Assembly (NCBI RefSeq): GCF_000696575.1
Contig: NZ_JMSQ01000007.1
Location: 1 to 64,000 of the forward strand
Direction of reading: 5' to 3'
DNA: 64,000 bases
Origin: Siccibacter colletis
GTDB taxonomy: Bacteria; Pseudomonadota; Gammaproteobacteria; Enterobacterales; Enterobacteriaceae
The notes beneath the pieces are model-generated. The model made no database searches. It saw nothing but the letters and a program-made list of their open reading frames with translations, and had not been told where the DNA came from. Both the position numbers and the translations under genes were made by a program. Of the stretch, positions 23,135 through 23,920 are shown one piece after another (the first letter of the stretch is position 1; every line of letters starts with the position of its first letter).

Positions 23135-23920
23135 ATGAACAACAACGGAGTGAGCACTGCCATGCGCGAGCGCGTGCGGCAGGTGCTGAAAGAAGTGGAG
23201 CAGCGCGATAACGTGCGTGTGCTGTATGCCTGCGAGTCGGGCAGCCGGGGCTGGGGGTTCGCTTCCCCGGACAGCGATTATGATGTGCGTTTCCTCTACG
23301 TTCATCCCCCGGAATGGTATCTGCGCGTCGATCCGCCGCGGGATGTGATCGAGCTGCCCATTGATGAGGTGCTGGACGTGTCGGGCTGGGAGTGGCGCAA
23401 AGCGCTGGGTCTGCTCAAGCGCGCCAACCCGACGCTCATCGAGTGGCTGGATTCGCCGGTGGTCTATCAGCAGGATGACCACGCGCTGGCAGCGCTACGG
23501 GCGCAGGTGCCGGCGTGGTTCTCCGCCGAGCGGGCGCGCTGGCACTACTATTCAATGGCGCGCAAAAACTTTCACGGCTATTTGCAGGGCGACACAGTGC
23601 GGCTGAAAAAGTATTTCTACGTGCTGCGTCCGTTGCTGGCGGTGCGCTGGATCGAAGCCGGGAAGGGAATGCCGCCGATGCGCTTTGCGCAGCTGCTGGA
23701 GGGGACGGTGGAGGATGCGCTGCTGCGCCGGGAGATCGACGAGCTGCTCGCCATCAAACAGCGGGCCGGTGAAGCGGAATATGGGGCAATGCGCCCGCAC
23801 ATCCACGCGTTTATCCTGCAGGAACTGGCGCGAGGGGAAACGCCGCCCGAACTGCCCGGCAGCAATAACGCCGACCCGGCGCTGCTCGACGACTTACTGT
23901 TCCGCACGGTGATGGCCTGA
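23135..23920 (+). CDS. Pol-beta-superfamily nucleotidyltransferase (RtcB-associated, occupies the rtcA position)
   Basis: 261 aa; GS-x9-DxD motif ([22 protein letters not shown]); starts 4 nt after the rtcB stop with an agga RBS. Confidence 0.85.
   Translation: [261 protein letters not shown]

Follow-up and report, generated by a model that had tools for sequence, protein, structure and literature searches.

An RlaP gene closes an RtcR/sigma-54 RNA-repair operon in Siccibacter colletis

What kind of nucleotidyltransferase is encoded immediately downstream of the RNA ligase gene rtcB in Siccibacter colletis, and what might it contribute to an operon in which no RtcA follows the ligase? The gene lies in a 64,000-nt stretch of contig NZ_JMSQ01000007.1, here called the window. 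The original prediction described a Pol-beta-type nucleotidyltransferase that takes the place of RtcA and, coupled to RtcB, could repair or tag RNA 3′ ends. From its family, its catalytic residues, and its genomic setting, we consider it likely that the open reading frame encodes an active RlaP-family nucleotidyltransferase, functioning in an RtcR/sigma-54 RNA-repair operon with a leader RNA, a Band-7 protein, and RtcB.

The gene, rlaP (23135..23920, plus strand), encodes 261 amino acids from an ATG start, with an AAGGA Shine-Dalgarno sequence 8–9 nt 5′ of the start codon. The ATG lies 4 nt past the rtcB stop codon (TAA, 23128–23130), a translational adjacency to rtcB that the original prediction had right. 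The protein matches PF10127, named "RlaP, RNA repair pathway DNA polymerase beta family" in Pfam, with 312.4 bits (cut-off, 23; E = 3e-93). The match spans the full length of the profile, with residues 10–256 corresponding to profile positions 1–248 of 249. At least 7884 of 8000 candidates scored from a 90%-clustered database were RlaP homologs, and 5186 representatives were present at 50% clustering. Given the end-to-end profile match and the thousands of homologs, the frame does not arise by chance; it encodes a member of the RlaP family (PF10127) of Pol-beta nucleotidyltransferases. RlaP-like proteins had been named earlier as a comparison only. The window protein is itself an RlaP, a family that already has a name, and public databases already contain nearly identical proteins (98%).

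The Pol-beta signature of a G-S pair, a DxD motif, and a third carboxylate is complete in the window protein (G36-S37, D48, D50, and D81), and the 22-letter peptide initially singled out as catalytic corresponds to residues 34–55. We aligned the protein with 69 homologs (70 sequences, down to 33% identity). Residues E34, G36, S37, R38, W40, S47, D48, R52, D81, G84, W85, K89, N98, E103, W104, K158, and K208 are invariant across this alignment, and D50 is conserved in at least 90% of the sequences. Such conservation indicates that the G-S...DxD...D two-metal signature is under selection. The assignment to the Pol-beta superfamily with an intact signature is thus confirmed by both the PF10127 match and the conserved catalytic residues. 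Loss of the catalytic Asp residues among orthologs, raised earlier as a sign of a pseudo-enzyme, is contradicted by the conserved carboxylates in the 70 homologs. It is barely credible that the gene is decaying or that its product is catalytically dead: all catalytic and cleft residues are retained, the window frame is intact and aligns over its full length with 120 close homologs, and the structure is predicted with confidence.

That prediction, an AlphaFold2 model computed from the 70-sequence alignment (pLDDT 96, pTM 0.91), shows an N-terminal alpha/beta nucleotidyltransferase core followed by a helical C-terminal domain with a terminal helix at residues 248–260. A search of PDB sequences with RlaP gave no match at E values up to 1. 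Foldseek matches in the PDB were all Pol-beta nucleotidyltransferases (3c18, ANT(4′)/kanamycin nucleotidyltransferase, Hailong HalB, ANT(9), AadA, and LinB), and the best of them had E values of 3e-5 to 1e-3, TM scores of 0.3–0.5, and identities of 9–15%. Two candidate identities fall away at this point. Minimal nucleotidyltransferases (MNT) of the HEPN-MNT type consist of a single nucleotidyltransferase domain of roughly 100–150 aa and have a HEPN partner. The 261 aa of the window protein form two domains, and the solved folds closest to it are those of the two-domain ANT(4′)/kanamycin nucleotidyltransferases, so the description "minimal" does not apply. PF10127 is its sole Pfam match at E values up to 0.01, with no MNT-type family, and no HEPN family was found in the four operon proteins scanned with Pfam; an MNT identity is ruled out by the length, the two domains, and the missing MNT and HEPN matches. 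NCBIfam and PADLOC hold no model for this protein. CCA-adding enzymes, for their part, possess neck, body, and tail domains in addition to a PolyA_pol head domain. This identity is likewise ruled out, by PF10127 as the only Pfam match and by the absence of any CCA-adding enzyme from the 50 best Foldseek matches listed.

The presence of ANT(4′)/kanamycin nucleotidyltransferase, ANT(9), AadA, and LinB among the best-matching solved folds invites the reading that RlaP modifies a small molecule, inactivating aminoglycoside-type or other ribosome-targeting antibiotics, which would suit an operon induced by translation stress. These matches are weak, however (TM 0.3–0.47, 10–15% identity), and reflect a common Pol-beta core together with a helical domain. 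The locus has no resistance-gene context, the family is defined through its linkage to RNA ligases, and purified orthologs labeled RNA robustly (PMC12776372); we judge an antibiotic-modifying role highly improbable.

Published work on the family points instead to RNA. As recounted in PMC12776372, RlaP was named in 2016 by Burroughs and Aravind (NAR) because the family is linked to RNA ligases, and its predicted role was to put back, ahead of ligation, nucleotides that cleaved RNAs had lost. Two members, PfRlaP and PaRlaP, from the rtcB-rlaP-rtcA operons of Pseudomonas fluorescens and Pseudomonas aeruginosa, were characterized by Carruthers, Fatma, and Huang (bioRxiv, December 2025; PMC12776372). 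According to that study, the Pseudomonas enzymes labeled only RNA among Escherichia coli macromolecules, required a 3′-OH, and added one or two NMPs (or dNMPs) with little base specificity, with Mn2+ serving better than Mg2+. Of a nicked tRNA, the enzyme preferred the 5′ half as its substrate, and when a tRNA without one of its anticodon-loop nucleotides was first treated with RlaP, its aminoacylation was partly rescued; aminoacylation is the only functional assay reported, in a single preprint (PMC12776372). The order of structural elements in our model fits the PfRlaP crystal structure as the same source describes it, a comparison made by description only. Between the window protein and a P. 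fluorescens ortholog in our sample, identity is about 60–62%. By analogy with these two enzymes, for which the predicted addition of nucleotides to RNA 3′ ends in repair has been measured, we infer the same 3′-end-adding activity for RlaP of the window.

The genomic setting is that of a compact, regulated operon. Divergent from it is rtcR (18687..20294, minus strand), which encodes a sigma-54-dependent activator that has a CARF-type RtcR domain at its N terminus, identified by the Pfam families RtcR and Sigma54_activat, by the PADLOC model RtcR--CARF_AAA_HTH, and by the NCBIfam equivalog NF038308 (841 bits; cut-off, 650). A putative sigma-54 (-24/-12) promoter, TGGCACGCTTCTGGCA (20431..20446, plus strand), was read from the sequence and follows the pattern TGGCAC-N5-TGGCA. 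The same element is kept upstream of the Franconibacter and E. coli operons and occurs in 17/21 Band-7 loci and in 5/8 loci without Band-7; one more locus (L079) joins the set once the last pattern position is relaxed. A leader of ~320 nt separates the promoter-like site from the start codon of a Band-7/SPFH (slipin-family) gene (20769..21914, plus strand), whose 381-aa product matches Pfam Band_7 (E = 5e-26) and has an E. coli ortholog annotated as "slipin family protein." No transmembrane segment was predicted in this protein (maximum Kyte-Doolittle 19-residue hydropathy, 1.39). The end of the Band-7 gene overlaps by 11 nt the start of rtcB (21904..23130, plus strand), which encodes a 408-aa 3′-phosphate/5′-hydroxyl RNA ligase with a full-length Pfam RtcB match (E = 2e-132) and a visible SHGAGR motif. 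Beyond rtcB and rlaP, a strong intrinsic terminator (23911..23945, plus strand) consisting of an 11-bp stem (23911–23935, six G-C pairs), a 3-nt loop, and TTTTTAT overlaps the rlaP stop codon, and lysC converges on it from the opposite strand. RlaP is thus encoded by the last gene of an RtcR/sigma-54 operon that runs from leader RNA through Band-7, RtcB, and RlaP to a terminator. The island is flanked by a DUF3811 (yjbD-like) gene and an SBF transporter gene on one side and by lysC-pgi-yjbEFGH on the other, and Franconibacter carries the same island at the same genomic place with the same gene order opposite RtcR.

No rtcA follows rtcB, and tblastn with an RtcA from one related operon gave a best E value of 0.5 across the whole 64-kb window; a tblastn search of the same window for Ro (rsr) found none. 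To place this arrangement among its relatives, we sampled one genome per species by scanning with the RlaP alignment, which yielded 80 loci at 43–78% identity. Neighbors were located by tblastn with the proteins of the window and by ORF clustering checked against Pfam; clusters were kept only if confirmed by Pfam or tblastn, and spurious antisense-ORF clusters at GC-rich loci were discarded. RtcB was the commonest neighbor (36/80), followed by RtcR (31/80), Band-7 (18/80), RtcA (18/80), Ro/TROVE (8/80), and a HEAT-repeat protein (4/80), and 35/80 loci, mostly more distant relatives, had none of these. Seven of the 80 loci share the window arrangement, in which RtcR stands next to Band-7-RtcB-RlaP. 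RtcR also adjoins Band-7-RtcB-RlaP plus RtcA (4 loci), Ro-RtcB-RlaP-RtcA (4 loci), Band-7-RlaP without RtcB (4 loci), RtcB-RlaP (3 loci), and RtcB-RlaP-RtcA (3 loci), and Ro-RlaP pairs occur in Paenibacillus (3 loci). The RlaP operon is modular.

These counts bear directly on whether RlaP takes the place of RtcA. By position it does, as the gene that follows rtcB; as a functional substitute it does not. The two proteins are co-encoded in 18/80 loci, including the Pseudomonas operons studied, and their chemistries differ: RlaP needs and leaves a 3′-OH, whereas RtcA acts on a 3′-phosphate, so neither can replace the other. The co-occurrence counts characterize RlaP as an accessory that joins operons with RtcA as often as it does not. 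The chemistry also raises a difficulty, since the window operon contains neither RtcA nor any kinase and the coupling of RlaP to RtcB is therefore chemically unexplained. The authors of PMC12776372 state that RtcB does not take the 3′-OH product of RlaP as a substrate, and they propose a 3′-kinase yet to be discovered or a trimming step.

Linkage to rtcB, on which the original prediction also relied, is frequent and not universal: RtcB adjoins RlaP in the 36 species counted above and is absent beside the orthologs in E. coli and Klebsiella oxytoca. Orthologs with 75–77% identity to the window protein lie in Band-7-RlaP operons without adjacent rtcB in these two species and in Superficieibacter, Mangrovibacter, and Lonsdalea. 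E. coli has a shorter version of the island at the same genomic site, comprising a sigma-54 promoter, a shortened leader RNA, a slipin-family gene, and rlaP, together with a convergent zeta-toxin-family gene. We found this rlaP in 1628/5426 complete E. coli genomes (about 30%), where it has no adjacent rtcB. The obligatory partner of RlaP may, therefore, not be RtcB.

The frequency of RtcR as a neighbor, at 31/80 loci, is relevant to a different proposal, that RlaP makes a nucleotide signal (e.g., a short oligonucleotide) sensed by the CARF domain of RtcR, analogous to HalB or the cyclases of type III CRISPR systems. The CARF domain itself, and the place of HalB, a maker of oligodeoxyadenylate, among the top structural matches, would fit such a role. 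Published assays, however, report only the addition of one or two NMPs onto an existing RNA 3′-OH, and RlaP also accompanies other ligases and occurs in phages without RtcR (PMC12776372). Moreover, the RtcR signal proposed for Salmonella is tRNA fragments ending in 2′,3′-cyclic phosphate. There is accordingly little chance that RlaP acts as a signaling enzyme.

Between the promoter and the Band-7 gene, comparative analysis revealed a tRNA-like leader RNA (20458..20600, plus strand; ~143 nt) supported by covariation across nine Enterobacterales. Stem P1 closes the structure, which further contains hairpin P2, the long hairpin P3, an acceptor-like stem, a GG that is conserved, and a T-arm. The T-arm is perfect (TCAGG-TTCGAAT-CCTGA, 20571–20587), and the acceptor-like stem is GCAAA/TTTGC in the window and GCGAA/TTCGC or GGTGA/TCACC in others. 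In the nine-species alignment, 88.9% of cells are paired, against 35–45% with slid 3′ partners, and 28 of 39 pairs show compensatory changes. None of 500 shuffles reached the observed values on four of five measures; the fifth, a count of further pair types, was reached by 12/500. A single-sequence fold of the window leader is uninformative (z = -1.2), and the structure is thus seen only by comparison. In the window, the leader gave only chance-level Rfam matches and no call by ARAGORN or the Rfam tRNA model. A second structured domain, a long irregular hairpin predicted by RNAalifold at ~20658..20745 (approximate; plus strand), has 25 pairs across nine Enterobacterales, 13 of them with compensatory changes, and ends ~25 nt before the Band-7 start codon, ahead of its ribosome-binding site.

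We built a covariance model (R1) from the leader alignment and searched it against the window, where it scored 127 bits, and against 83 loci. It found the leader at E < 1e-3 in all Band-7 loci except two (L047, E = 0.016; L046, E = 0.05), and in no locus of the RtcR plus RtcB-RlaP type lacking Band-7. The sole locus without Band-7 that carries the element is L013, where it lies ~300 nt upstream of rlaP. The leader RNA thus tracks the presence of Band-7 across genomes, L013 excepted. In E. coli and K. oxytoca, the two RtcB-less examples examined, the acceptor-like stem of the leader lacks its 5′ strand. The betaproteobacterial and Pseudomonas element itself forms, or precedes, a canonical cloverleaf that is called by ARAGORN and by the Rfam tRNA model alike (47–54 bits), and the homologous leaders of L019, L029, and L042 contain tRNA-model matches. 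A tRNA associated with Band-7 ("b7a-tRNA") next to RtcB had been predicted by Burroughs and Aravind in 2016, as reported in a 2018 preprint from the Y-RNA field (bioRxiv 10.1101/312249), according to which it had no experimental validation at that time. The original prediction included neither this RNA nor a role of the Band-7 gene in the system.

Another candidate substrate is the tRNA-like leader RNA of the operon itself. After processing, the acceptor-like stem of the leader would end in N-CC, and RlaP would add the last one or two nucleotides, completing a 3′ end like that of a tRNA; we think this unlikely. Equally doubtful is the broader proposal that Band-7, the RNA, and RlaP form one self-contained ribonucleoprotein module in which RtcB is optional or dispensable. 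The RNA, Band-7, and RlaP do occur together without rtcB in E. coli, K. oxytoca, and three sampled loci (L008, L010, and L028), and at L013 the RNA is directly upstream of rlaP. In most orthologs, CACC, ACC, or TCC follows the acceptor-like stem with no fixed terminal A, and addition of exactly one or two nucleotides with a preference for tRNA-shaped substrates is what PMC12776372 describes. Against this, the window RNA reads ATTCTCC after the stem, with no clean NCC, processing of the leader at that point is a supposition, and the natural tRNA 3′ end (Asp-42 in the annealed pair) was disfavored in the published assay (PMC12776372). RlaP is also common with RtcB or Ro in the absence of Band-7 and leader (L009, L011, L012, L017, L024, and L030), and the Paenibacillus Ro-RlaP pairs lack both. 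If true, the module would explain the rtcB-less slipin-RlaP operons in 30% of E. coli genomes and how RlaP works without RtcA or a 3′-kinase, as well as why RtcB need not accept its 3′-OH product.

We return to the repair of broken RNA by RlaP, for which the proposed steps would run as follows, in an order that we infer. RNA damage would activate RtcR, with a signal such as that described in the Salmonella literature, and RtcR would open the sigma-54 promoter at ~20431 so that the whole operon is transcribed. The two-metal Pol-beta site of RlaP (D48, D50, and D81) would then add one or two untemplated nucleotides to the 3′-OH of a broken RNA, preferably the 5′ half left when a tRNA is cleaved within its anticodon loop, replacing nucleotides trimmed by nucleases. 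RtcB would seal 3′-phosphate or 2′,3′-cyclic phosphate ends to 5′-OH ends, and the Band-7 protein and the tRNA-like RNA would presumably serve as cofactors or scaffolds.

The identification of RlaP is correct and at the same time ordinary, because the operon is of a known RNA-repair type (RtcR, Band-7, tRNA-like RNA, and RtcB). Gene, family, operon type, and associated RNA have all been described before, and nothing biologically new is established here. The practical gain lies in annotation: the gene and its enterobacterial orthologs, among them the copies carried by about 30% of complete E. coli genomes, are currently labeled only "nucleotidyltransferase domain-containing protein" and can be relabeled "RlaP-family RNA 3′-end nucleotidyltransferase." The locus also offers a compact, natural RtcA-less test case for reconciling the 3′-OH product of RlaP with the need of RtcB for a 3′-phosphate, and it carries, in addition, an unvalidated Band-7 protein and tRNA-like RNA.

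Among known systems, the closest relatives of the window protein with measured activity are PfRlaP and PaRlaP. They belong to the same Pfam family over the full length, have the same catalytic residues, and are encoded directly downstream of rtcB under RtcR/sigma-54 control, and the two-domain fold predicted for the window protein is consistent with the PfRlaP crystal structure as described. The operons differ in that rtcA lies downstream of rlaP in the Pseudomonas operons studied, whereas the window operon ends at rlaP with its terminator and, unlike them, has its rtcB preceded by a tRNA-like leader and a Band-7 gene. In this respect it resembles the Band-7/b7a-tRNA/RtcB systems, which, as outlined in bioRxiv 10.1101/312249, place Band-7 beside RtcB with a tRNA-like non-coding RNA. 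Compared with b7a-tRNA, the enterobacterial RNA is a reduced mimic, in which two extra hairpins accompany an acceptor-like stem, GG, and T-arm; the betaproteobacterial and Pseudomonas versions, unlike that of the window, have an additional canonical cloverleaf. The enzyme also has structural kin outside repair: ANT(4′)/kanamycin nucleotidyltransferase and HalB, like RlaP, place a Pol-beta nucleotidyltransferase core before a helical domain, but the substrates of ANT(4′) are aminoglycosides, HalB makes oligo-dA independently of a primer, and neither shares the genomic context of RlaP. The divergent RtcR, sigma-54 promoter, and RtcB ligase are common to the window, E. coli rtcR-rtcBA, and Salmonella rsr-yrlBA-rtcBA, and the Salmonella operon further combines a scaffold protein (Ro/Rsr) with a tRNA-mimicking RNA (YrlA). 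Relative to these canonical RtcBA and rsr operons, the window has no RtcA and no Ro, RlaP is its last gene, and Band-7 with a different tRNA-like RNA occupies the position held in Salmonella by Ro and its Y RNA.

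The leader of the RtcR/sigma-54-type operon encodes a structured, tRNA-like RNA (20458-20600, forward strand) with strong covariation support. Two extra hairpins accompany its acceptor-like stem and its T-arm (20571-20587); no Rfam family matches this RNA, and ARAGORN makes no call there. Further along the same leader lies a second conserved, irregular hairpin (~20658-20745, forward strand), whose 3' limit is ~25 nt upstream of the Band-7 start codon. Compensatory changes were observed in 13 of its 25 pairs among nine Enterobacterales, and this hairpin may be a regulatory 5'-UTR element.

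RlaP-encoding loci from other genomes vary in their content. E. coli carries a shortened island (locus L005 from E. coli C9, 5449-8863; likewise L001) that occupies the same yjbD-lysC site as the island of the window. Its sigma-54 promoter is conserved and its leader RNA truncated, and it encodes slipin and RlaP. Adjoining it is a convergent gene for a P-loop protein of the zeta-toxin family. Neither rtcR nor rtcB is found near the short island in L005 or L001; an unlinked RtcR may control the island in trans. E. coli rlaP was found in 1,628 of 5,426 complete genomes. A HEAT-repeat protein of ~450 amino acids is a recurrent neighbor of RlaP (L009, 8791-10167; L011, 8809-10152; L019, 6538-7893; L042, 3730-5142). 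In Pectobacterium its gene lies 3' of that for RlaP; two betaproteobacterial loci have it placed between the RtcB and RlaP genes.

Elsewhere in the window, the lysine riboswitch upstream of lysC (25404-25597, reverse strand; Rfam RF00168, 90.6 bits) is an ordinary feature. A 424-amino acid open reading frame runs antisense to rtcB (21889-23163, reverse strand), and several further long antisense frames occur around the same region. Comparable frames reappear in homologous GC-rich loci, and the long antisense frames look like compositional artefacts.

Among the loci compared, the leader RNA is confined to operons with a Band-7 gene, with a sole exception. This is L013, an uncultured Enterobacteriaceae contig on which the leader RNA (21-115) lies at the contig end, an apparent ~300 nt from the downstream rlaP (418-1200), with no intervening Band-7 gene. 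Leaders of the betaproteobacterial and Pseudomonas Band-7 operons each harbor one or two tRNA-like genes with a canonical cloverleaf, called by ARAGORN (L019, 3770-3843; L029, 4145-4289; L042, 268-341; L022, 5145-5217) and sited 3' of the sigma-54 promoter. Their anticodons vary (tat, cga, aag, and cat), and three of these cloverleaves pass the Rfam tRNA gathering score. Directly 3' of the acceptor-like stem, most orthologues of the leader RNA carry N-CC (CACC, ACC, or TCC; columns 152-158 of their comparative alignment), and the window reads ATTCTCC at the corresponding positions (20594-20600). A terminal A is not conserved; the sequence resembles a tRNA 3' end without its last nucleotide. 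The leader RNA of the window is probably the tRNA associated with Band-7 ("b7a-tRNA") predicted by Burroughs and Aravind (2016; cited via bioRxiv 10.1101/312249).
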